Positions 1,867 through 49,297 of a stretch of DNA of 64,000 nt are shown here, in pieces. Every line of letters starts with the position of its first letter. Within the stretch, counting starts at the first letter, position 1. The stretch is from Limisphaerales bacterium (GTDB taxonomy: Bacteria > Verrucomicrobiota > Verrucomicrobiia > Limisphaerales > AAA164-E04). The stretch lies in NCBI GenBank assembly GCA_965242585.1, contig OZ251460.1:1244869-1308868 (forward strand), read 5' to 3'. The translations under genes and the position numbers were made by a program. Under the pieces are notes generated by a model that was not told where the DNA came from, made no database searches, and worked only from the letters and a program-made list of their open reading frames with translations.

Positions 1867-3039
1867 TTAGGCTTTGGGGTTCAGTTGGCTGAGGAATCGG
1901 GCCAAATCGCGGCGGTAGTCGGAGTCAATTTCCATTTGCGTGAGTTGTTTGTGAACCATCGCCAAGCCGTTCGCTCCGGATTCGGCTGACTGTGCGTCGA
2001 CAAATCGCCGGCTGGGATCGGGGTGGAGGAAACGTTGGAGGATGTGGACGAGTTGCCGGTTGACGCGCACGTAGGGAGGCAGGAGTGACTCCAATTGCTG
2101 AGGCAAGGTGAGCTTTAGTTTCAGAAGATCGTTTTCGGTCGCGCCTCGATCCGTGCTAAGTCGTTGGCCGCGAAGCAATTCCAGCCCTACCAGTCCTACG
2201 GCGTAAATGTCGGATTGGACGGTGGCCGGTTTGCGTTCGTGGACTTCCGGCGCCATGTAAAGCGGAGTGCCAATGAGGGGGTTTGTTGGTTCGTCCATCA
2301 TGACGGCGCGTCCGAAGTCGATTAACTTGACGTAGCCAAGCGGGTCGATCATGGCGTTGCTCAGCTTGATATCGCAGTGGAGATAGCGGGCGGCGTGGAG
2401 AGTTTCCAAGCCGGAGAGCATCTGCCGCATCACATAAACGGCAACGCCGGGCTGGATGCAGAGCTTGTTGTCGTAAAGATTGAGTATGGTTTGGACGCGC
2501 TTGTTAGCGCGGGTGCTGTGCCAGTTTCGATTGAGGTAGCGCTGTTTGCAGAGTTTCAAAAAGGCGCGAAGATTCATGCCCTCAATCATCTCCATTTGGA
2601 TGTATCCGATTCCGTTGGTTTCCTCGTAAATGTCGCAGTCGATGAGGTTGGGCGAGCGAGCGGAATGAAGACGGGAAACTTGCGCCGCAATGCGCCCCAT
2701 GTCCGTCCAGTATTTTTTGACGCTTGAGTAAAGGCCGGGATCGAAGATTTTGACGGCGTGTTGAGTGATGCAGCCGCGCGATCCTTGTCGTTCCGCCAGA
2801 AAGACAACGCCCTGCCGCCCTTCGCCAATCTGACGGTGAAATCGATAGGCGACCGGATAAAAGATGGCGTGGGTGCGCAGGATGGATTGAAAGTTCTCAA
2901 TCAACTGTTTGCGTCCCATTCCAACAAAGTCGTCTCGCTCTTCGGCCGTGTCCGAACCGGAAGACACAGTGGGATCGCGCAAAGTGGTCTCCGCATCGGG
3001 AGGAAAATCCTTCGGATTGTTGAGCGCAGGAGGAATCAT
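1867..3039 (-). CDS. Hanks-type serine/threonine protein kinase
   Basis: 390-aa ORF with an ATG start. It has the glycine loop GEGRQGVV, AVKIF (catalytic Lys), the catalytic loop HCDIKLSNAMI, DFG and APE. Confidence 0.85.
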   Translation of the reverse strand: MIPPALNNPKDFPPDAETTLRDPTVSSGSDTAEERDDFVGMGRKQLIENFQSILRTHAIFYPVAYRFHRQIGEGRQGVVFLAERQGSRGCITQHAVKIFDPGLYSSVKKYWTDMGRIAAQVSRLHSARSPNLIDCDIYEETNGIGYIQMEMIEGMNLRAFLKLCKQRYLNRNWHSTRANKRVQTILNLYDNKLCIQPGVAVYVMRQMLSGLETLHAARYLHCDIKLSNAMIDPLGYVKLIDFGRAVMMDEPTNPLIGTPLYMAPEVHERKPATVQSDIYAVGLVGLELLRGQRLSTDRGATENDLLKLKLTLPQQLESLLPPYVRVNRQLVHILQRFLHPDPSRRFVDAQSAESGANGLAMVHKQLTQMEIDSDYRRDLARFLSQLNPKA

Positions 3040-3168
3040 GGATTGTTAACTGCCGTCAAAGCATATAAGCGCAACGCTTGAAAGTCGTATTGAGAATGAA
3101 AAAAAATCAAGTTTCTCCACGAATTTGTTTTTTTGAAACTAAACAAGATTCTCGCGCTGAAAGGGAAG

Positions 3169-3420
3169 TCAATCTATTTTCGCCGCGGCTTTATCTAAAT
3201 AATCTTTAATGATTCTTTGGGCAGTGACGTACATGAGGTATTCTTCAGCGTTGATGCCCATCTCTTCTGGATCAAATTCGTTTGCGTAGACCTCGATGAT
3301 TCTCATCGCGATTTCTCGCTCTTCTTTGCTGGGTTTGGGGTCGTTGAATTTGGCGCATCCTCCCGTCCATGCGACAACGGCGATCCAAAGGAATAATTTC
3401 AATTTCTTGGTCATAAACAA
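3169..3420 (-). CDS. Small putative lipoprotein
   Basis: 83-aa ORF. It has a hydrophobic leader ending in a lipobox-like WTGGC. I recognise no family. Confidence 0.45.
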   Translation of the reverse strand: MFMTKKLKLFLWIAVVAWTGGCAKFNDPKPSKEEREIAMRIIEVYANEFDPEEMGINAEEYLMYVTAQRIIKDYLDKAAAKID

Positions 3421-3450
3421 AATCGAAAACTTTGCAAGCCAACGGTTGGT

Positions 3451-4947
3451 TCAATTCGTTCTTTTCACGCTTGGAACACCGGCGCGGTAACGGTTTAGCA
3501 AGGATTTGAGGGCTTTTGCTTTTTCGGGATGAGCGGCGAGAAGGTTGACGGTTTGTTTGGGGTCTGTGCGCAGGTTGAAGAGTTCGGCGGGCTCTTGATG
3601 CGGTTGGACGCCCAGAGTTTCCAAAATTGTTTTCGGTTCACGGTTGTCGGCTCCGCTGGGAGCGTCGATAAAAACCCAGTCGCCTTGCCGAATGGCGAAT
3701 TTGCCTCTGCCGCTGTGATGAACGACGGCTTCCCTGATGGGCTCGGCGAGTTTCTCCGAACGGAGCGCCGGCAGAATATTGTAAGAATCTTCAGCAGCGT
3801 TCGGCGGAAGGTCGTAATCAATGATGGCGGCGACGGTGGCCATTAGGTCGGTGAGGCAGATGATTTCCGTTGAAGTGGAATTGGAAGGAATTTGGCCGGG
3901 CCAGCGAGCGAGGAAGGGAACTCGATGTCCGCCTTCGTAAAGGTCTCGTTTGCATCCGCGGTTTCCGGCGCTGCTCCAATGGTTGTAGGTTTGGATATGA
4001 CCGTAGGTGTTGGTTTCGGCGCCGTTGTCTGCGGTGAAGATGACGAGTGTGTTGTCCGCCACGCCGGAGCGTTTCAACTGAGCCAAAATGCTTCCCACTG
4101 CGTCATCCAATTCCAGCACAAAGTCGCCGAAGACTCCGCAACCGCTTTTTCCCAAAAACTCTTTGTTTGGATTGATGGGGCGGTGCGGGCAAATGGGGGC
4201 GAAGAAGACGAAGAAAGGCCGCCGGGCTTGCGCGCTTCGTTCAATAAAAGCGTTCGTTTTTTCCACCCAAGCGGGAATCATTTGCTCAAAAGTGAAGCCG
4301 GGTTGCTGAAAGCCTTTGTTGTTGTTGGGTCCGACAATGTGGGCGGGGATGTGCGTATAATCAAAAGGTTCTGAAGGCTCCGCCAAGACGTGGCGATTTT
4401 CCATGAACGCCCAAGCCGGCTGGGCGAGCGCAAAGGAATAGGTGAAGCCGGCGTCTAGCGGGCAATAGAGGGCGGGTTTTGACCAGTCGATGTTGAGCGG
4501 ATTCACCTTGCCGTCGGGATTCTTCAATGGCCAGCGGCGTCCCAAATGCCATTTGCCAAAGTGTCCCGTTTCGTAGCCGCTGGCCGCAAGCATGGCCGGA
4601 AGCGTCAATCGCTTTGGTTCGATGAGAGGTTCCGAGGCGCCGTTTAGCACGCCGCTTTTGAGTCGAGTGCGCCAACAATACCGGCCGGTCAGCACACCGT
4701 AGCGAGTGGGCGTGCAAACGCCCGAGGGCGAATGCGCGTCGACAAAACGAATGCCTTCGCCGGCCAAACGATCCAAGTGCGGCGTTTGGATTTTGGAGTC
4801 TGGATTGTTGCAAGAAAGATCGCCGAAACCCAAGTCGTCGGCCAAAATCAGAATGATGTTCGGGCGCTTTGAATCGGCGGCAACACCGGTAAAAGTCAGA
4901 AGCGCTAAAAATGCGCCAATTAATATTTTGCTCATAATCTTGTTCAT
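3451..4947 (-). CDS. Secreted sulfatase
   Basis: 498-aa ORF with a signal peptide. Motifs are NIILILADDLGFGD, CTPTRYGVLTGRY, GKWHLG and TADNGA. Confidence 0.92.
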   Translation of the reverse strand: MNKIMSKILIGAFLALLTFTGVAADSKRPNIILILADDLGFGDLSCNNPDSKIQTPHLDRLAGEGIRFVDAHSPSGVCTPTRYGVLTGRYCWRTRLKSGVLNGASEPLIEPKRLTLPAMLAASGYETGHFGKWHLGRRWPLKNPDGKVNPLNIDWSKPALYCPLDAGFTYSFALAQPAWAFMENRHVLAEPSEPFDYTHIPAHIVGPNNNKGFQQPGFTFEQMIPAWVEKTNAFIERSAQARRPFFVFFAPICPHRPINPNKEFLGKSGCGVFGDFVLELDDAVGSILAQLKRSGVADNTLVIFTADNGAETNTYGHIQTYNHWSSAGNRGCKRDLYEGGHRVPFLARWPGQIPSNSTSTEIICLTDLMATVAAIIDYDLPPNAAEDSYNILPALRSEKLAEPIREAVVHHSGRGKFAIRQGDWVFIDAPSGADNREPKTILETLGVQPHQEPAELFNLRTDPKQTVNLLAAHPEKAKALKSLLNRYRAGVPSVKRTN

Positions 4948-40311: not shown

Positions 40312-41628
40312 TCATTCTTTTGGCGGCTTGCTTGGCGATGCGGGGGCAAACTCTTTTGGCCAAGCCTTAATCACCGCATGCACCAAAGTAGCCAGTGGGA
40401 TCGCAAAGAACACTCCCCAAAACCCCCACAGCCCTCCGAAGATCAAGATGGCAAAAATAATGGCCACCGGATGCAAACTGGTGACGTCGGACAACAGAAT
40501 CGGCGCCAGAACGTTCCCGTCCAAAATTTGAATGACGGTGTAAGCGGCTAAAATCCAAAACACTTCCCAAAACACTTTTTGATTCCAGTTGCCGGCCGAA
40601 TCCAGCGCCGCGTGGTCAAACGCGGCCAAAGTGATCGGAATATACATAATGGCCGCGCCCACATACGGAATTAGAACCGACAACCCCACAAAAAGAGAAA
40701 GCAACAACGCCGTCTTCAATTCAAACAGACGAAAAGTAGCGTAAGTCACCGACCATACAATAATAATCTCCCAAAACTTGCCGCGAATGTAATTGCCGGT
40801 TTGCACATTGACGTCCCGCCAAACCTGCGTCGCCAGCGAGCGATCCTTCGGCAAAAATTGAATCACCCACGCAATTATCTTTTCTTTGTCCTTGAGCATG
40901 AAAAAAACCAAAACCGGAATCAGCACCAAATACACAATCCACACCACCACATTCCTGAAGGCATTGAGCAACTGCGCCACGATAACCTGCCCAATATTCG
41001 TAATTTCCTCTACAAACTTCTCCCCTAAATCAATATTCAACCATCCCAAAGCGCCGCTGTTTGCTCCCGTGTTTGTCGTGCCTTCCACTCCCGTCTCCTG
41101 CATGCGCCCCGAATCCATAAATCCATACGGCAAAAGAGGCGCAAAGTTGGCATTTTCCATTCCCGTTTCCTTTGGCGGTTCCGATTCTGCAACAGACTTC
41201 GCCCCCTTGCCGGTTTCTTTTGCTTCTTCATCCATGGTTTGCCCAAGCTTTGCCAGCCAATCCGGCGCCGAATCTGCCAAATTAGCGAACGAAGTTTTCA
41301 CCGTGTTAATGATTTTCGGACTGCCTTCCACCACAAAACTTTGCACTTGGTTCACAATGGCCGGCAACAGCACAAAACAAAGAAACAAAATTCCTACCAA
41401 AAACCCGATGAAAACAGCCGTCACGGCGAACAATCGAGGCAGGCCGTATCGTTGCATTCGCAGAGAAATGCCGTCCAGCAGATAGGCAATCACCACGGCC
41501 GCAAGAAAAGGCGCCAGCATGCCGCCGAAAAAGTAAATCACTACCATGCCGACAAGCAACAACACTCCCAAAAGCGCCACTTGCGGATTGGACAGCTGGC
41601 GTCTCAGCCAACGCTTAATCGCTTCCAT
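40312..41628 (-). CDS. AI-2E family transporter (PerM-like permease)
   Basis: 438-aa polytopic protein with the typical AI-2E C-terminal pattern (IPYVGA, LHPVAIIFAILIFGGLWGFWGVFFAIPLA). It has an inserted hydrophilic loop. Confidence 0.8.
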   Translation of the reverse strand: MEAIKRWLRRQLSNPQVALLGVLLLVGMVVIYFFGGMLAPFLAAVVIAYLLDGISLRMQRYGLPRLFAVTAVFIGFLVGILFLCFVLLPAIVNQVQSFVVEGSPKIINTVKTSFANLADSAPDWLAKLGQTMDEEAKETGKGAKSVAESEPPKETGMENANFAPLLPYGFMDSGRMQETGVEGTTNTGANSGALGWLNIDLGEKFVEEITNIGQVIVAQLLNAFRNVVVWIVYLVLIPVLVFFMLKDKEKIIAWVIQFLPKDRSLATQVWRDVNVQTGNYIRGKFWEIIIVWSVTYATFRLFELKTALLLSLFVGLSVLIPYVGAAIMYIPITLAAFDHAALDSAGNWNQKVFWEVFWILAAYTVIQILDGNVLAPILLSDVTSLHPVAIIFAILIFGGLWGFWGVFFAIPLATLVHAVIKAWPKEFAPASPSKPPKE

Positions 41629-41719
41629 ACGCGGTATCTCTTTTGCGCTCCCGCTTTGCCACCCGGCGCGACGGAAAAATCCTTCCCTTCCTTTACTTCA
41701 AATCCCGCCCGCCCGCAAA

Positions 41720-41828
41720 CCTAAACTTGAATCTTGCAACGACGGCCGGCAATCGGCATAAATAAATCCTTTATATGGCAGAAACATTCCGAGCCTTGTT
41801 GCCGCAAATCGATGCGCTAAGCGCCAAC
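41720..41828 (+). repeat. Left copy of a ~108-bp diverged direct repeat (copy of the 5' end of the COG4889-like gene)
   Basis: Hand alignment to 43785-43891 gives about 86% identity (13 mismatches and a 2-bp indel). Long identical runs include AAACTTGAATCTTGCAAC, CAATCGGCATAA, AAACATTCCGAG and CAAATCGATGCGCTAAGCGCCAAC. Confidence 0.85.
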
Positions 41829-41912
41829 ACTTGGCAATCTGGCAAATGCCTCTTCAATCTAATTCTCCGCCGCGCCAATTTATCGGTCCAAACATGGAAA
41901 ATAATCCGCTAA
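41775..41912 (+). pseudogene. 45-codon remnant mimicking the N-terminus of the COG4889-like protein
   Basis: It starts MAETFRALLPQIDALSAN, versus MAKTFRELLQQIDALSAN at 43838. It then diverges to unrelated sequence and stops. Confidence 0.6.
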
Positions 41913-42053
41913 TAAATGCGAGAAAGATGGCGGAAAAGATTAATGCGGGGTTTCGGGGGATTGTGGGATGTTTTTCGTCTGAAAGCGCAAAACCCGCCGA
42001 AATCGCCTTGAAATGTGCAATTTCAGCATAGTTATTTTGTTCGCAAATATAGT

Positions 42054-42989
42054 ATGGCGTCAAACGGGAAGACCGAAATGACAATCTGCGAATCCATCGC
42101 AAACCGCAAAGCGGCGTGGCAATCCGACGACGGCGCGTCCGCGCTTTACCGCGACGACGCTTTCGCGCTTATGAAGGACATCCCAACCGACAGCGTCGAC
42201 TGCGTCTGGACCGACCCGCCTTATCTGCTTTCCAACGACGGCGTCACCTGCGTGGCGGGCAAGCGCGTCAGCGTCAACAAGGGCGACTGGGACAGAAGCG
42301 GCGGCGTTGAAAACGACCACGAATTCAACCTGTCTTGGCTAAGCGAATGCCACCGCATCTTAAAGCCCGCGGGAACGATATGGGTAACCGGAACGCTGCA
42401 CATATACCTCAGCGTAGGCATGGCGATGATGCAGCTGGGCTATCGCATTCTGAACGACATCATTTGGGAAAAGACTAATCCTCCCCCCAACCTTGGCTGC
42501 CGTTGCTTCGCGCACTCCACCGAAACCCTGCTGTGGGCGACCAAAGCTCCCAAGGGCAGCAAGCGCAAATACACCTTCCACTACAAGGAAATGAAAGCCG
42601 AAAACGGCGGCAAGCAGATGAAGACCGTTTGGCGCTTCCCCGCCGCCGGTCGCCAAGAAAAGCGATTTGGCAAGCACCCCACGCAAAAACCCGTCGCGCT
42701 TATAGACCGATGCCTGCGGGCCAGCACCAACCCGGGCGATTTGGTGGTGGATCCTTTTGCCGGCTCCGCTACTACCGGCGTGACAGCGATAAGGCTGGGT
42801 CGCCGTTTTATCGGCAGTGAACAGGTGAAGGAGTATGCCGAGTTGGGGGCTAGGCGGTTGGAAGAAGTGGGATGTGGCGTAACTAACGCTATTTCCATCC
42901 CGGAAACCGCCGATTTCAAGATGCAACAGCAGTTACTGGAGTCGTCGGCTCAATACCAACCATCAGCCAATAGGGAGGTGCCTGGATGA
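42054..42989 (+). CDS. Beta-class N6-adenine DNA methyltransferase, DpnA/M.HinfI-like
   Basis: Blocks recalled from DpnA are TDPPYLLSNDG, VSVNKGDWD, HEFN, LKPAGTIWVTG, NPPPNLGCRCFAHSTETLLWATK, GKQMKTVW, GKHPTQKP, VVDPFAGSATTGV and RLGRRFIG. I chose the start at ATG 42054; the track opens at GTG 42015. Confidence 0.85.
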   Translation: MASNGKTEMTICESIANRKAAWQSDDGASALYRDDAFALMKDIPTDSVDCVWTDPPYLLSNDGVTCVAGKRVSVNKGDWDRSGGVENDHEFNLSWLSECHRILKPAGTIWVTGTLHIYLSVGMAMMQLGYRILNDIIWEKTNPPPNLGCRCFAHSTETLLWATKAPKGSKRKYTFHYKEMKAENGGKQMKTVWRFPAAGRQEKRFGKHPTQKPVALIDRCLRASTNPGDLVVDPFAGSATTGVTAIRLGRRFIGSEQVKEYAELGARRLEEVGCGVTNAISIPETADFKMQQQLLESSAQYQPSANREVPG

Positions 42990-43783
42990 CGCTTATTCCT
43001 ACTGACGAATCCGGGAACAGCCCCAGTTGGCGGACTATTTTCGAGCGTTACGAAATCGCTGACCACGACTTCGACACTGCGCCCTTTCCCATATCAGCAG
43101 ATCAAATCAAGCGGGCTTGCCAGCACTTTACAAAAACCGGTGAAAAGGAAGTACGGATACTGTGCAAGCAGGACACGCGAGAGTCCCGCCCCCAAGTCTT
43201 TCGGGATCGAGGGCTTTTCATCCTGCCCGTTAAGAATGGAGAGTATGTCATCGTCAAAGGCGAGGGCTACATCGACGTACCAGACATTACTTTCCCTTTG
43301 CAGGATTACCAGAGTGCCTTTCCGTTCAAGTTGGAAACTTCGGGAGTAGGCAATTCGGAAATGCAGTACTTGGATCGGGCTTATGCGCTGAGCCTAGTTC
43401 GACATTTTGTCGGGGATGATTCTCTCGTGCTTACGATTCGCGGGAGGAAATACACTCCTCAGTTTGACTTCTTGGTTAATGGGTTCCCCATCCGTGCACA
43501 AAGTGTGCAGACCGAAGTTGACGGCGGCTACGAAGGCAAATCCCAAGTTGTCTTGGTCGAAGCCAAAGGATCGAATGCGGACAACACCATCATCCGCCAG
43601 CTCTACTACCCGTTTCGCCAATGGCAGAACCACACGGCAAAGCCCGTGTCAACGCTCTTCTTTCAGCGAACAAGCGATGACGAATACCGCATATGGCAGT
43701 TCGTCTTCGACGACCCCGCCGATTACGGCAGCATCCGCCTGCTGAAATCCGCCCGCTACAAAATTGCAACGGCGTATCGCTGA
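42986..43783 (+). CDS. Putative type II restriction endonuclease (cognate of the 42054-42989 methyltransferase)
   Basis: 265-aa ORF whose ATG overlaps the methyltransferase stop (ATGA). A candidate PD-(D/E)xK core is EVDGGYEG...VVLVEAKG. I recognise no family, so the call rests on context. Confidence 0.55.
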   Translation: MTLIPTDESGNSPSWRTIFERYEIADHDFDTAPFPISADQIKRACQHFTKTGEKEVRILCKQDTRESRPQVFRDRGLFILPVKNGEYVIVKGEGYIDVPDITFPLQDYQSAFPFKLETSGVGNSEMQYLDRAYALSLVRHFVGDDSLVLTIRGRKYTPQFDFLVNGFPIRAQSVQTEVDGGYEGKSQVVLVEAKGSNADNTIIRQLYYPFRQWQNHTAKPVSTLFFQRTSDDEYRIWQFVFDDPADYGSIRLLKSARYKIATAYR

Positions 43784-43784
43784 A

Positions 43785-43891
43785 CCCAAACTTGAATCTT
43801 GCAACAACAGCAGACAATCGGCATAAGCAAATCCTTTATGGCAAAAACATTCCGAGAACTGTTGCAACAAATCGATGCGCTAAGCGCCAAC
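43785..43891 (+). repeat. Right copy of the ~108-bp diverged direct repeat
   Basis: See the 41720-41828 entry. It covers 53 bp upstream plus the first 18 codons of the COG4889-like gene. Confidence 0.85.
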
Positions 43892-46800
43892 CCCGCCGAA
43901 AAAGGACGACTGTTCGAGCAGTTGACCAAGGCTTTCCTAGAACAAGAAAAAGCCAACCGCGCCCGATTCAAACAAGTCTGGCTCTGGAACCAATGGCCAA
44001 ACCGCGGCCAACAAACAGACATCGGCATCGACCTTGTAGCCGAAACATACGACGGCCAACTCATCGCCATCCAATGCAAATTCATTTCTCCATCCACAGG
44101 CCGCATCGACCGAAACCCTCAAAAAGTGACCAACTTCACAACCGCTCTCAACAGCAGGCAATGGAACTTTGCCGAAGGCATCTTTGTCTCCACCTGCGAT
44201 CATTGGACGAAAGAAGCTGAAAACGCCCTAAATCACAGCAAAATTCACGTCTCCCGCTGGAGTTGCGAAATCTTTGAACAATCTTCCATTGACTGGCGAC
44301 ACTTCACGCTCTCGCCCCAGCCCAAACCTCCGCACGAATATCAAGAAACCTCTCTCCAATTAAAAGAAGAATTGGCAGCATATAAAACCTCTCCCCAACT
44401 CCCGCAACGCGCCGTCAAAACTCTGCGCGAATATCAAGAAACCGCCTTGGCCGCCGTCCTCGAAGGCTTTGAAACCGCCGACCGCGGCAAACTCATCATG
44501 GCCTGCGGCAGTGGCAAAACCTTAGTCGCCCTCCGCATCGCCGAAGCTTTGGCGCCCAACGGCACCATCCTGTTCCTCACGCCTTCCATTTCCCTGCTCG
44601 CCCAATCTCTGATGGACTGGGACGCCGACGCTCAATCCCCTTTGCGCATCTTTTCTGTTTGTTCCGATACCTCCGCAGACCAACGCAAAAGCCAAAACGA
44701 CCCTTTGCATACGCCGCTCCTCGAAATCAAAATCCCGCCCACAACCAATCCCCAAAAACTCGCCGCCGCATTCCACAAAAACCAAAACCACCAACCCAAC
44801 GCCAAAGGCTTGACCGTGATTTTCTGCACCTACCAAAGCCTCGAAGTCATCCACCAAGCCCAAACAACCAAACAAAACCCCTTGCCGTCATTAGACCTAA
44901 TTATCTGCGACGAAGCCCACCGCACCACCGGCCAATCCGATCCCAATGCGAACAAAAAAACCGAAACCAAAGGCTTCCAACGCGTCCACGACCCCGAATT
45001 CATTGGCGCCGGCAAACGCCTTTATATGACCGCCACGCCCCGCATTTACGGAGACCGCGCCCAGCGCAAAGCCGCCGCCAAACAAATCCTGCTCGCATCC
45101 ATGGACGACGAAAAACTCTTTGGCAAAAACTTTTACCAACTCGGCTTTGGCGAGGCCATTCAAAGAAACATCCTCTGCGATTACAAAGTAATCATCCAGC
45201 ACGTCGATGTAGAGCAAGCCCGCCATATTCTAGACGACAGTTATTTTGATGCCGAGCTCCGCAAGTCAAACAATGCTGACCAAGACAGCGAAATCATCAA
45301 ACTCCTCGACAACGGCGCCCGAATGATCGGTTGCTGGAACGCTTTGCGCAAACACGGCGAAGCCAACACCTTTGCCGAAAACGAAAAACCCGCCCGCCGA
45401 GCCGTCGCCTTCAGCAACCGCATCGCCCAATCCAAAAGCTTTGAAAAATATTTCCCCACCGTCATCCAGCATTGTCAAGAACACCAAGCAAACGACGCCG
45501 GCCAAGCTCTTGAATGCGAAACCAAACACGTCGACGGCACCCAACTTTCCCGCCACCGCGCCGATGCCCTTCAATGGCTTCGTGATAAACCCGCAGACGG
45601 CCAATGCAAAATCCTCACCAACGCCCGCTGTCTGACCGAAGGAATCGATGTCCCCGCATTAGACGCCGTTCTTTTTCTCCAACCCAGAGAATCCGAAATC
45701 GACGTCGTCCAAGCCGTTGGCCGAGTCATGCGCCAAGCCGAAGACGAAGACAAAAAGCGCGGCTACATCATCATTCCCATTGTCATCGCCAAAGGCAAAG
45801 ACGGAAGCGAAGCCCTCAACTCCAGCGTTTATCAAACCGTCTGGCAAGTTATCAACGCCATCAAAGCTCACGACGACCGCTTTGCCGCCGTCATCAACCA
45901 ACTTGCCATTGAGCAAAAAGACTACCTCCAACAAAAAGACATCGGACAAGAAAACCAGCAGACCTCAACCGACAACGACCAACACCTCCAAACCCACATC
46001 CAATTCGTCAATGCGCCCGCCGTCTTGAAAAAACTTCTCCTCGCCAAAATCGTCAACACCTACTCCGACCGAAATTACTGGAATCGCTGGATCTCCACCA
46101 CCCACGAAGTCGTTCAACAAGTCACCGACAAGCTAAACAATCCCAAACAACAACCCCAATCCAAGCCCATCTTGGACCGCTTTTTCAAAGCCCTTGAACA
46201 CAACGTCCAAGGCATGCCCGTCAAAGACGAGGACGCCATTGAAATGCTGGCTTTGCATTATGTGAGCAAGCCGGTTTTTGACCATTTGTTCCCTACCACC
46301 AGCCCGCTTTCCGATGCGCTCAATGCCGTAATCCATGACCTCAAACCATACGGCCTTGCCGAAGAACTGGAGAGCCTGCAACCCCTTTTCTGGCAAGCGC
46401 AACTCAGCGCCAAAGACGCCCCCAGCAACGCCGCCAAACAAAAAATCATCAACTACTTTTACGAATCCTTCTTCCGCCGAACGATGCCGCGCCAAGTGCA
46501 GAGTTTAGGCATTGCGTATTCTCCCATTGAAGCGGTGGACTACCTGCTGCACGCCGTGCAAGACCTGCTCCAAACTCACTGGCCGCCGCAACCCAACGGC
46601 CGCCCGACTACTCTGGGAAGTCCCGGCGTTCACATCATCGAGCCGTTTGCCGGCACGGGAACATTCCTCGCCCGCTTGATGGCCGACCACTCGCTCATCT
46701 CGGACGAAGAGTTGGACTTCAAATATCAACATGAAATCTTCGGCAACGAAATTCTGCTGCTGGCTTATCACGCCGCCAACGCCAACATTGCCGCCGCTTA

Positions 46801-46984
46801 CCAAGAACGCACTGGCAAAACCAAACCATTCAACAATCTCTGGTTCGGCGACACTTTTCGCGCTTATGAAACGATGCATCAAGCGCAACCGCCGCTGAAC
46901 CTGCCCGGCTTTGAAGACAATCACAAAATCTTGCAACATCAAAAGACCGCCAAAATCCGCGTCATCCTCGGCAACCCACCATGA
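43838..46984 (+). pseudogene. Type ISP-like (COG4889) Mrr-nuclease / SF2 helicase / gamma-N6A-methyltransferase gene, truncated inside motif IV
   Basis: Nuclease: DIGIDLVAE...IAIQCK. Helicase: ACGSGKT, LIICDEAHRTTG, MTATPR, QAVGRVMR. Methyltransferase motif I is IIEPFAGTGTF. The ORF ends ...VILGNPP-TGA, so motifs V-VIII and the target-recognition domain are missing. Confidence 0.8.
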
Positions 46985-47074: not shown

Positions 47075-48145
47075 ATGAGTGCAGAAGAAACGGCAATTGA
47101 GCGGGTCGAAAAGAAATTGGAAAAGATCGAAAAGAAGGTGGACAGCATCAACACCGCTCTTTACGGCATTGGCAACCCTCACGGAGGATTGTTCGGGGAA
47201 TTTAAGGCATTGGAAGTCAAAATTGACGGCGTTGAAAGCAAGTTAGAAGCCAAGATTGACGGCGTAGAGAGGATTTTTGACAAAATGTCTGGACTCTTCA
47301 AATGGTCTGTCGGCATAGCCTCAGTTCCGTTCTGTGCGATAGCCATTCCGATTTTCATTGAAATCGTCTTGCCGATAATTCGGAAATGGATGGGTTTTTC
47401 GGTTATTGCGATTGCGATAATTTGGACGGCCACCACCGCCCAAGCGCAACTTTACATCGACGTTTATCCATCCCAAGACAACCCCGACAGCGAAATCGTT
47501 TGGATTTTTAGCGGCTCTTCCACCGCTCATTACGGAAGCAGCATTCGAAGCAGCCAAAATTATCACGCGCGAGACTCTTGGAAACACGATGATGTAGGCG
47601 AATCTCTTTATTTAGCCAATAAGCCAACGAACCAGTTAGTTTCTCTTTCTCCACTGTTTTCCAACACCAACAATCCAACAGACATCGAGTCCATTCAAAA
47701 AAGAATTCCGGGAAGCGATAGAACGCAAGATTTTGACGCCATCGTTACCAACGCGCCGACCGTAACCATTGGAAGCACGAGCAGACCCATCGGCAAGATT
47801 TTTATGAACGACGCCGATGTTGACGAGATTGGCATTCGCATTACTCCTCCCAATCTGGTTTTTACCAACGGGCAAACATCTCGCTGGTTTGGCGCCGGAA
47901 TTTTGAACAAACCGCACAGCGATTTTGCTCCTAGTGAGTACCTAGAGAATCCGCTGGTAAGTTACACCACTCATGCTACAGCGATAGGTGCTCCTTATTT
48001 TGCTGAGAGACAGCGCAACGGTGTTCGATTACGAATACACCATTCGTTCATCCCTGAACCTGCGGGATATGCTTTGGTGTTTGGATTATTTGCGATTGGT
48101 TTCATATTTTTCCGACGATTGTTTCTAAAGAATTCATCAAATTAA
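47075..48145 (+). CDS. Composite ORF: XhlA-like coiled-coil/TM module joined in frame to a signal-peptide + PEP-CTERM protein
   Basis: The N-terminal 105 aa are a coiled coil with KIDGVE repeats plus one TM. An internal Met at 47390 starts MGFSVIAIAIIWTATTAQAQ, which looks like a signal peptide. The C-terminus IPEPAGYALVFGLFAIGFIFFRR is a PEP-CTERM sorting signal. Confidence 0.6.
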   Translation: MSAEETAIERVEKKLEKIEKKVDSINTALYGIGNPHGGLFGEFKALEVKIDGVESKLEAKIDGVERIFDKMSGLFKWSVGIASVPFCAIAIPIFIEIVLPIIRKWMGFSVIAIAIIWTATTAQAQLYIDVYPSQDNPDSEIVWIFSGSSTAHYGSSIRSSQNYHARDSWKHDDVGESLYLANKPTNQLVSLSPLFSNTNNPTDIESIQKRIPGSDRTQDFDAIVTNAPTVTIGSTSRPIGKIFMNDADVDEIGIRITPPNLVFTNGQTSRWFGAGILNKPHSDFAPSEYLENPLVSYTTHATAIGAPYFAERQRNGVRLRIHHSFIPEPAGYALVFGLFAIGFIFFRRLFLKNSSN

Positions 48146-48364: not shown

Positions 48365-48830
48365 CGATCCGAATGAGGAAAATAAGGAATCGGAAGAGGA
48401 ATCCGAGTCTCCAGACCAAAAATTGCCGGCCAAAACTGATTCGGACAAACCAGATGTCTTGAAAGAACAAACAAGTGGTGTTCATCTTTCAAGTCTCTCT
48501 GCATCCATTCAACAATCACCTTTGCCGCCTGCGGACATGTTTCGTGATTACGAGATGACTCTACCCGGAAGCGGCGACCGCATTCTTGGTATGGCCGAGA
48601 AAGAGCAAAATCATCGCATCAACTGGGACAACGAATCTTTGAAAAGATCTGATAGTGAAACAAAACGAGGGCAATGGTTTGGCTTCATTATCGCGATATT
48701 TTGCATCATCGTTACAGCTTTCCTTGCTTACAACGAGCAGCGTTTAGTGCCGTCCATATTGGTAGGCACAGGCACATGCGCTATCGTCTGGCAATTCATT
48801 CAAAAGAAAAGGAAACATGATGGTTTTTGA
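48339..48830 (+). CDS. DUF2335-like membrane protein
   Basis: It has an acidic N-terminus, then PPADMFRDYEMTLPGSGDRILGMAEKEQNHRINWDNE followed by two TM helices. I recall this pattern from the DUF2335 family. Confidence 0.6.
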   Translation: MKHEQNKPNDPNEENKESEEESESPDQKLPAKTDSDKPDVLKEQTSGVHLSSLSASIQQSPLPPADMFRDYEMTLPGSGDRILGMAEKEQNHRINWDNESLKRSDSETKRGQWFGFIIAIFCIIVTAFLAYNEQRLVPSILVGTGTCAIVWQFIQKKRKHDGF

Positions 48831-49297
48831 AAAAGCGAAAAGAAGCCGCCCGCATTGAATTGCCGCGCAGTTTGCCAGAGTTTCAACGAGTCTCTGAGAT
48901 GGGAAAACAACTGGCCGAACTGCATCTCAACTATGAAAAGATGGAGCCGTTGGAATTGGAGATTGATCGAGCCGCTGATTTTGACGAAAACAACCCGGCG
49001 CATTTTGAAGTGGAAAAAATGAAATACGGCGGGAAGCGGCCAAACTTGGATAAAACCGTGATTCATTTCAATCGGTGGTTGACTTTTCGGGGCATTCCTC
49101 TGGAGTGCCATAACTATCGGCTGGGCGCGCGGAGTGCGTTGGACTGGCTAGTCAACCGCTACTGCGTCAAAACCGACCGCCGCTCTCAAATCACCAAGAA
49201 TCCCAATGCGTGGAATGCCGGCCGCTACCTCTTTGATTTGATTCCGAGAATCGCCCGCCTTTCATTGCAGACGCCATGTCTGACGCAGAAAAGATAG
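48827..49297 (+). pseudogene. Detached C-terminal fragment of the Type ISP-like (COG4889) protein
   Basis: It has no ATG and opens at TTG. It carries LAELHLNYE, FEVEKMKY, GIPLECHNYRLGARSALDWLVNRYCVKTDRRSQITKNPNAW, which I recognise as the conserved extreme C-terminus of COG4889/Type ISP-like enzymes. It is in the same reading phase as 43838. Confidence 0.7.

Follow-up and report, generated by a model that had tools for sequence, protein, structure and literature searches.

A Type II Restriction-Modification Unit That Probably Inserted with Long Target Duplication in a Limisphaerales Genome

The Locus and Its Features

The stretch of DNA analyzed here, called the window below, comprises 64,000 nt of a Limisphaerales bacterium (G000:C1:1244869-1308868; GCA_965242585.1, contig OZ251460.1) with a genome of 4.53 Mb. 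The runs that hold the window sequence are sponge metagenomes. Between a gene for an AI-2E family transporter and a Type ISP-like gene lies a small Type II restriction-modification (R-M) unit, consisting of a leader, a methyltransferase gene (M) and a candidate endonuclease gene (R). The unit is bracketed by two diverged direct repeats, each of which holds the head of the Type ISP gene. We compared this site with two sponge-associated sister genomes, G009 and G001, which are complete chromosomes whose record titles name them as Limisphaerales metagenome-assembled genomes (MAGs), and with further alleles on metagenome contigs that encode the closest R proteins (L058-L063, L066, L067). Two sites have to be told apart: locus 1 is the AI-2E transporter/Type ISP intergenic region, and locus 2 is the 3′ end of a paralogous Type ISP gene. 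Both insert junctions at locus 1 are bridged without differences by short-read contigs (runs from two studies). No contig skipping the cassette was found among the contigs of four public runs; these are contigs, not reads, and rare forms are outside their reach. The features of the site, by window position, are as follows.

40312-41628, minus strand: AI-2E family transporter gene, the left neighbor of the target site (Pfam PF01594, E 2.3e-64), collinear at 90-94% with G009, G001, L063 and L067.
41634-41717, no strand: part of the AI-2E/Type ISP intergenic region, single-copy in the window and duplicated in the apparently less-trimmed locus-1 alleles L063 and L067.
41718-41828, plus strand: left copy of the putative target duplication (111 bp), in which 57 bp of upstream DNA precede the first 18 Type ISP codons; a non-functional remnant.
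41775-41912, plus strand: dead-end open reading frame (ORF) of 45 codons, the duplicated gene head reading on into the insert (from the ORF list; no Pfam family).
41829-42077, plus strand: leader of the unit (249 bp), with a promoter-like motif, partly common to other alleles of the unit.
42078-42989, plus strand: M gene, 303 aa, predicted beta-class amino-methyltransferase, CcrM/HinfI-like (Pfam N6_N4_Mtase, E 4.6e-53; PADLOC MTase_II, E 3.7e-84).
42986-43783, plus strand: R gene, 265 aa, Type II restriction endonuclease candidate with a PD-(D/E)XK core (Pfam DUF6996 and DUF6997; PADLOC REase_II, E 2.9e-31).
43783-43891, plus strand: right copy of the putative target duplication (109 bp), adjoining the R stop codon; it contains the functional Type ISP gene head, preceded by 55 bp of upstream DNA.
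43838-46984, plus strand: Type ISP-like target gene, truncated at 1048 aa (Pfam Mrr_cat_2, ResIII, Helicase_C and ISP_coupler; PADLOC REase_MTase_IIG, positions 2-1034 of 1646).

Direct Repeats at the Target Site

The repeats align in two blocks, 41718-41774 with 43783-43839 (57 nt, 88%) and 41774-41828 with 43837-43891 (55 nt, 89%). The start-to-start spacing shifts from 2065 to 2063 between the blocks, which is a 2-bp indel. A BLAST of the left repeat against the whole 4.53-Mb genome returned two copies only, the second at 86% (E 3.8e-31). A first-pass annotation of this DNA had described direct repeats of ~108 bp with ~86% identity and a single 2-bp indel, and both comparisons bear this out. 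The gene heads in the repeats are 18 codons each, MAETFRALLPQIDALSAN (ATG at 41775) in the left copy and MAKTFRELLQQIDALSAN (ATG at 43838) in the right. The 18 codons are as first annotated, but the 53 bp of upstream DNA given with them is corrected to 55-57 bp. The left copy does enter a 45-codon dead-end ORF, as had been proposed. A further weak similarity of ~20 bp to the left of both copies had been read as a possible extension of the repeats. Its right-side match is the conserved 3′ end of the R gene, and because this gene end is also present in the units at locus 2, the similarity is not part of the repeats. The insert between the two copies is 41829-43782, or 1,954 bp.

Empty Sites and a Second Locus

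Locus 1 is empty in both sister genomes. G009 (L015 4123-4230) and G001 (L016 4103-4210) each hold one 108-bp copy directly upstream of the Type ISP gene and no insert. Matches to the flanks of the window's locus stop at 41828 and resume at 43783, overlapping by 108 bp in the relative. The first-pass annotation had named an empty site, with a single 108-bp copy before the helicase gene, as the check on its proposal, and such a site is found in these two genomes. The same genomes carry the M-R pair at locus 2, with 89% nucleotide identity over window positions 42057-43783 (1.72 kb). There the unit lies just past the 3′ end of the paralogous Type ISP gene (1598 aa) and is flanked by direct repeats of 305 bp (92%) in G009 and 183 bp (93%) in G001. 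Each repeat takes in the terminal part of the Type ISP paralog and the opening bases of the following gene, which codes for an SGL-family protein. The window's genome is empty at locus 2: the 1598-aa gene is intact there, the SGL gene comes next, and the two flanks of G009 both align to a single 298-bp copy. A single recombinase-less unit occupies two unrelated sites; a long target duplication accompanies it at each, and for each a sister genome shows the site empty.

We consider it likely, at a probability of roughly 0.85, that a self-contained ~2-kb Type II R-M operon inserted with target duplication between the AI-2E and Type ISP genes. A class of R-M insertion "with long target duplication" is described by Furuta, Abe and Kobayashi (2010, NAR 38:2428; PMC2853133), who cite Nobusato et al. 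(2000; reference 37 there). All the features that they use to delimit the class are found here: R and M lie in the insert, the insert is 1,954 bp (<20 kb), the repeats exceed 30 bp and are unique in the genome, an empty site exists, and there is no mobility gene. The first-pass annotation had likened the geometry to this class, and the likeness is backed by these features, by the empty sites and by the second locus.

Other routes to a unit between repeats have to account for the same comparisons. In the third class of Furuta et al., the intergenic region would have been duplicated in tandem first and the unit would then have landed between the copies by chance. The end products alone are compatible with this order of events. 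However, only one copy is present in all five unit-less sequences (two from locus 1, one from locus 2, and the own genome searched in full), and the coincidence would have to have happened at two unrelated loci, so that we regard this order of events as very improbable. The repeats might instead stem from recombination between two paralogous Type ISP gene heads, an alternative that the first-pass annotation had raised, or from site-specific integration by an integrase or transposase acting in trans. The 1598-aa Type ISP paralog is indeed present in the genome, and both loci border Type ISP genes. The repeat, however, has no BLAST match to the paralog's locus, where similarity first appears at window position 43974, beyond the repeat, and the left copy is collinear with the empty-site sequence; recombination between gene heads is rejected on these grounds. 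As for an enzyme in trans, the repeats range from 79 to 305 bp, the two targets have no motif in common, and no tRNA, integrase or inverted terminal repeat was found. The two variants together have, in our view, almost no chance of being right.

The Inserted Unit

The ~1.96 kb between the copies had been annotated as exactly the methyltransferase and endonuclease pair. The pair is there, and the 1,954 bp also include a 249-bp leader. Positions 41904-42066 of the leader are common to the locus-1 alleles L063 and L067, and positions 41972-42066 to the locus-2 allele L059; thus most of the leader belongs to the unit rather than being orphan DNA. We did not find a match to 41829-42056 in the window's own genome or in the loci first compared, and 301 genomes of the order gave only three chance-level matches of 22-25 bp (E 0.003-0.008). 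For 41829-41903, no source was found in the own genome, the 301 order genomes or the other alleles of the unit. The leader contains the motif TTGAAA (42008-42013)-N15-TAGTTA (42029-42034)-TTTTGTTCGCAA and a palindrome, TGAAAT..ATTTCA (42009-42025). By its sequence the motif would act as a promoter; a scan with the sigma-70 consensus gave one minus-strand match and none at the promoter-like motif. In the form TTGAAA-N15-TAG(T/C)(A/T)(T/A)-(C/T)TTTGTTCGCA, the motif occurs upstream of M (window 42008-42046) and again downstream of R (L058 2590-2630; L059 6840-6880), and the palindrome sits in the motif copy upstream of M. This conserved motif may be a regulatory site of the R-M family. Two small ORFs in the leader (41831-42031, plus strand; 41854-42102, minus strand) were considered as a controller protein and dropped, neither matching any NCBIfam family.

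The ATG of M at 42078 is common to all alleles, and an in-frame ATG at 42054 is a possible upstream start. M resembles the HinfI/CcrM family of beta-class N6-adenine methyltransferases (GANTC); its best matches are the CcrM model and, in the PDB, CcrM 6pbd (E 3.7e-53). As in these systems, M precedes R with overlapping stop and start codons. Unlike CcrM, M (303 aa) does not have the CcrM C-terminal domain, and it scores 228.7 bits with the NCBIfam CcrM model NF050803, far below the 830-bit cut-off. M is best classed as a related beta-class enzyme, not a demonstrated CcrM equivalog.

The start of R overlaps the stop of M (ATGA). The R motif D179...E192-x-K194 is conserved in 26 homologs, and the AlphaFold2 (AF2) model has a predicted local distance difference test (pLDDT) score of 89.7. 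Residues 109-262 of R resemble PD-(D/E)XK nucleases, among them the BpuSI nuclease domain (Z 7.2) and Hjc (Z 6.7), and also DrdV, HsdR and DpnI. The Z scores are modest (VIA-align 5-7.3), yet the matches consistently indicate one fold. A sequence search of R against solved structures found no match, and Foldseek found none at E ≤ 0.001; the PD-(D/E)XK assignment is based on the VIA-align Z scores of 5-7.3, the motif and PADLOC. R may also resemble R.HinfI, an enzyme of similar length. Both genes are intact, with the same lengths as in the relatives (303 and 265 aa), and both are under purifying selection relative to six other alleles, with ratios of nonsynonymous to synonymous substitution rates (dN/dS) of 0.11-0.18 for M and 0.08-0.10 for R. 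With separate genes, intact catalytic motifs and purifying selection, M and R have the marks of a Type II R-M pair with predicted enzyme activity.

GANTC is mildly under-represented in the genome, with an observed/expected ratio (O/E) of 0.88-0.89 and a rank of about 95-120 of 1024. The 5-mers most strongly avoided are CCWGG (O/E 0.46), GGWCC (0.56), GCWGC (0.58) and GGGCC/GGCCC (0.58), as expected from other restriction systems, past or present. Foreign origin by composition was considered and rejected, as the cassette is not set apart from the genome: its GC content is 0.539 vs. 0.525 ± 0.037 in genome windows, and its tetranucleotide distance is ordinary, 35% of random windows being at least as deviant. 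There is no tRNA between 36 and 52 kb in the window, no integrase or transposase among the neighboring genes scanned, and no inverted terminal repeat at the insert. Outside the genus, the closest relatives of the M-R pair are in Dehalococcoidia MAGs (L024, L025 5121-6773), with 79% nucleotide identity over the pair and 84% amino acid identity for R. This similarity implies a transfer between Verrucomicrobiota and Chloroflexota that would be fairly recent. Around the unit's relatives in other phyla (24 loci, including Dehalococcoidia), no flanking repeats bracket the pair.

Allele Series and Junctions

The repeats differ in length from allele to allele at both loci.

Locus 1, L063 and L066: repeats of 196 bp, 86% identical.
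Locus 1, L067: repeats of 194 bp, 95% identical.
Locus 1, window: repeats of 108-111 bp.
Locus 2, L062: repeats of 183 bp.
Locus 2, L061: repeats of 79 bp.
Locus 2, L059 and L060: no repeat, some of the Type ISP gene having been replaced; L059 is a deletion variant.
Locus 2, L058: left flank as at locus 2, right flank from elsewhere.

The left flank of L058 is the 3′ end of the Type ISP paralog, and its right flank (2987-3783) matches a gene at C1:376900-377696 of the window's genome. This context is either a rearrangement, a third context of the unit, or a chimeric short-read contig.

The segment common to both loci is ~1.93 kb long (L063 4917-6848 = L059 4917-6853, 85%) and spans from ~175 bp upstream of M to ~50 bp past R. 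In L063, L066 and L067, the right repeat copy aligns to window positions 41634-41828 (195 bp), and in L063 and L067 it begins just past the transporter start codon. As seen in these two contigs, the ancestral duplication reached ~85 bp further left, and this part has been deleted from the window's right copy. On its right side, the window's allele is without ~144 bp that L063 has between ..GCTGAAC and ..GCAAAC; the missing stretch covers the spacer that follows R and the right repeat copy's first ~85 bp. On the left side, L063 and L067 are without window positions 41821-41903, a stretch bounded by CGCTAA on both sides. The starts of the right copy at locus 2 differ by allele as well (L019 6008, 5943, 5861 and 5731). 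The simplest reading of these alignments would be that the duplication once measured at least 195 bp and that deletions at microhomologies have cut it back to the 108 bp now in the window.

The right junction of L063 and L067 can be compared with both of its parental sequences. The unit reads GTATCTTTGTTCGCA (seen in L058), the target reads GTATCTTCTTTGC, and the two are joined within 6-7 shared bases, GTATCT(T). The left junction in the window reads ..GCGCCAAC, followed by the unit start ACTTGG at 41829.

Divergence of the Repeats and Probable Exchange between Lineages

The two repeat copies in the window differ at 13 of 101 aligned positions, and seven of the 13 changes are unique to the left copy, being found in no other copy. 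The first-pass annotation had taken this divergence as the sign of an old event. That the event is not recent still stands, but the decay of the dead left copy and probably a mixed ancestry both contribute to the divergence. Dating of the insertion by repeat divergence was therefore dropped: with asymmetric decay and recombination between lineages, the repeats are no clean clock.

The flanks of the insert and the unit itself have different relatives. In the left flank tree (3.4 kb), the window's genome is sister to L063 (94% identity, support 100/100), and the occupied L067 groups with the empty G001 and G009. Identity of the unit between the window's genome and L063 is 87%. In the first 300 bp of the right flank, the window's genome is closest to L067 (93.6%) vs. 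87.6% to L063, and over the first 900 bp its identity to L063 is 87-88%. Approximately unbiased (AU) tests, with groups defined by locus and after a first tree had been seen, reject a clade of locus-1 units (p 0.002 for the whole unit, 0.02 for M and 5e-5 for R) and a clade of locus-2 units (p 0.0004). Both junctions are exactly alike in L063 and L067, whose flanks nevertheless belong to different clades. Taken together, these relationships suggest that lineages have exchanged occupied alleles, and also the interiors of units, by homologous recombination, and the flanks show a recombination breakpoint at the insert.

It is possible, and we hold it tentatively, at somewhat less than even odds, that homologous recombination brought an allele that was already occupied into the window's genome from another Limisphaerales lineage, with one crossover, the left one, in or near the left copy and the other within the Type ISP gene. 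Most of the 12-14% divergence of the copies would then come from two lineages' forms of the locus having been placed next to each other, and not from age. Such a transfer would complement an insertion with target duplication. Compared with the right copy, the single copy of G009 and the left copy of L067 show 6/100 differences, and its own left partner shows 13/101. The sister relationship with L063 holds for the left flank and not for the unit or the right flank, and the equal junctions of L063 and L067 on flanks of different clades agree with movement of occupied alleles. Decay alone, however, explains much of the difference, since 7/13 changes are unique to the unconstrained left copy. The informative sites are clustered within a 9-bp variable stretch, and no sampled donor matches, the window's junctions differing on both sides from those of L063 and L067.

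Proposed Mechanism

The insertion with target duplication that we favor may have run as follows. The unit, with its promoter-like leader, methyltransferase and endonuclease and no recombinase, would have entered the ~200-bp AI-2E/Type ISP intergenic region. The insertion would have duplicated its target, originally at least 195 bp, which comprised the whole intergenic region and the first 18 Type ISP codons, and therefore both neighbor genes would have kept their own upstream region and start codon. Later, in the window's genome, a ~144-bp deletion between AAC(C) microhomologies would have removed the spacer after R and ~85 bp of the right copy, and the left copy would have decayed as a remnant, forming the 45-codon dead-end ORF. 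The joining was probably illegitimate and microhomology-mediated, by a template switch in break repair or by end-joining across sister copies, and not site-specific; the shared GTATCT(T) at the right junction, the varying repeat lengths and the lack of a target motif suggest this. The duplications spare the start or stop of the flanking genes, and insertions that duplicate a gene boundary may be those that survive. The occupied allele would later have passed between lineages by homologous recombination in the flanks. This exchange would explain the differing ancestry of the copies and a unit tree that follows neither the locus nor the host flank.

Several points weigh against this account. The mechanism is read from end products only, with no insertion event observed. 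The empty sites could be secondary and have arisen via precise excision between the repeats. Microhomology is comparable with both parental sequences at one junction only, a source upstream of ACTTGG being lacking for the left one. The trimming series assumes one ancestral insertion per locus, and differing junctions could also result from independent insertions into the same intergenic region; neither junction of the window's allele is exactly that of L063 or L067. Lineage-specific states are common to both repeat copies within L067 (95%) and within G009 and G001, which calls for gene conversion or separate events. Lastly, the repeats are short with few informative sites, and the different ancestry of the two copies is suggestive only.

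A circle carrying the unit and one target copy could also integrate in the manner of Campbell, by a single homologous crossover. The product would have the identical repeat-unit-repeat geometry, and diverged copies would be expected if the circle came from another lineage. Repeat-flanked R-M units have been hypothesized to amplify and excise via their repeats (PMC2853133). The crossover explains re-integration at a used locus only, not the first arrival at either of two unrelated loci, and the contigs of four runs show neither a circle nor an excision joint; we regard this route as unlikely.

Under illegitimate insertion, the same unit may have been copied more than once between the two sites that border Type ISP genes, each time by two microhomology-guided template switches in break repair, with the break possibly made by a restriction enzyme. 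We put this forward as a conjecture that is rather unlikely to be right in full. If it were true, this clade of sponge symbionts would keep a natural series of fresh, trimmed and exchanged alleles from which the insertion mechanism could be reconstructed and then tested.

Relation to Known Systems

The unit resembles the R-M units with long target duplication of Furuta et al. in several ways. It holds R and M without a mobility gene, and its repeats, of tens to hundreds of bp, align to a single copy in a relative. The repeats span the translation start (locus 1) or stop (locus 2), they do not disrupt the target gene, and the target is itself an R-M gene. The published repeats, too, often extend across a start or stop codon, and the genes hit are frequently R-M genes, one of them a Type IIG gene in H. 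pylori (PMC2853133). The same authors propose that double-strand breakage by the R-M system itself lies behind this mode, with the repeats allowing amplification and release.

The unit differs from those cases in its host, a sponge-associated member of the Limisphaerales (Verrucomicrobiota), a phylum absent from their lists. Here one unit is found at two loci with reciprocal empty sites in complete sister genomes, and the allele series (305/183/79 bp; 196/194/108 bp) shows apparent trimming by deletions. At 86-89% identity, the repeat copies in the window have also diverged much further than the majority of those they tabulate.

Homology-facilitated illegitimate recombination and microhomology-mediated template switching are general models for the integration of foreign DNA. 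Their products have a few bases of microhomology at one or both junctions, no site specificity, and duplicated or deleted recipient DNA. The unit is similar to them in these respects, with the limit that only the GTATCT(T) junction has been compared here with both parental sequences. It differs from a transposon, insertion sequence (IS) or integrative element: a recombinase, terminal inverted repeats, a fixed short duplication and an att core were all not found, and the duplication ranges from 79 to 305 bp.

The movement of R-M genes without a recombinase has been an open question since 2000, and to our knowledge most of the cases in print are based on one pairwise comparison. The present comparison draws on three complete sister genomes and several metagenome contigs, in which one unit occupies two loci, the empty sites are reciprocal, and the repeats measure 79-305 bp. 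The original event is poorly reflected in the length and the divergence of the repeats, as deletions appear to shorten the redundant copies and lineages to exchange the occupied alleles. These findings extend the phenomenon to sponge-dwelling Verrucomicrobiota and describe no new kind of element.

Neighboring Genes and Related Loci

The Type ISP-like gene encodes an Mrr nuclease, an SF2 helicase, a coupler and the start of a methyltransferase. Its ortholog is intact in L063 (1621 aa), and in G009 a DNA match to it spans almost the whole gene. In the window the gene, which lies downstream of the insert, is itself broken: the stop at 46984 is followed by ~1.85 kb of unrelated DNA, with a 356-aa ORF without a family and a DUF2335 protein, and then by a Type_ISP_C tail (48827-49297). 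The 356-aa ORF (47075-48145) was considered as the missing Type ISP C-terminus, to which it has no similarity. The final 1.1 kb of the truncated ORF (45900-46983) is only 65-78% identical to L063, G009 and G001, which are 80-92% identical to each other; this suggests that positions 45900-46983 were replaced by a distant allele in the window's genome.

A second, distantly related R-M pair that belongs to the same families, in R-then-M order, is located at G000:C1:1586962-1588578, with an R 21% and an M 26% identical to those of the window. Just downstream of the unit, behind a copy of the promoter-like motif, L058 (2688-2954) and L059 (6939-7241) hold a 220-bp piece that is 83-84% identical to the 5′ end of this other R gene. 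The unit may once have adjoined the second R-M system. Downstream of locus 2, all relatives have two to three tandem copies of a ~200-bp unit that are 70-77% identical (L017 12818-13369; L018 3187-3735; L061 8569-9324).

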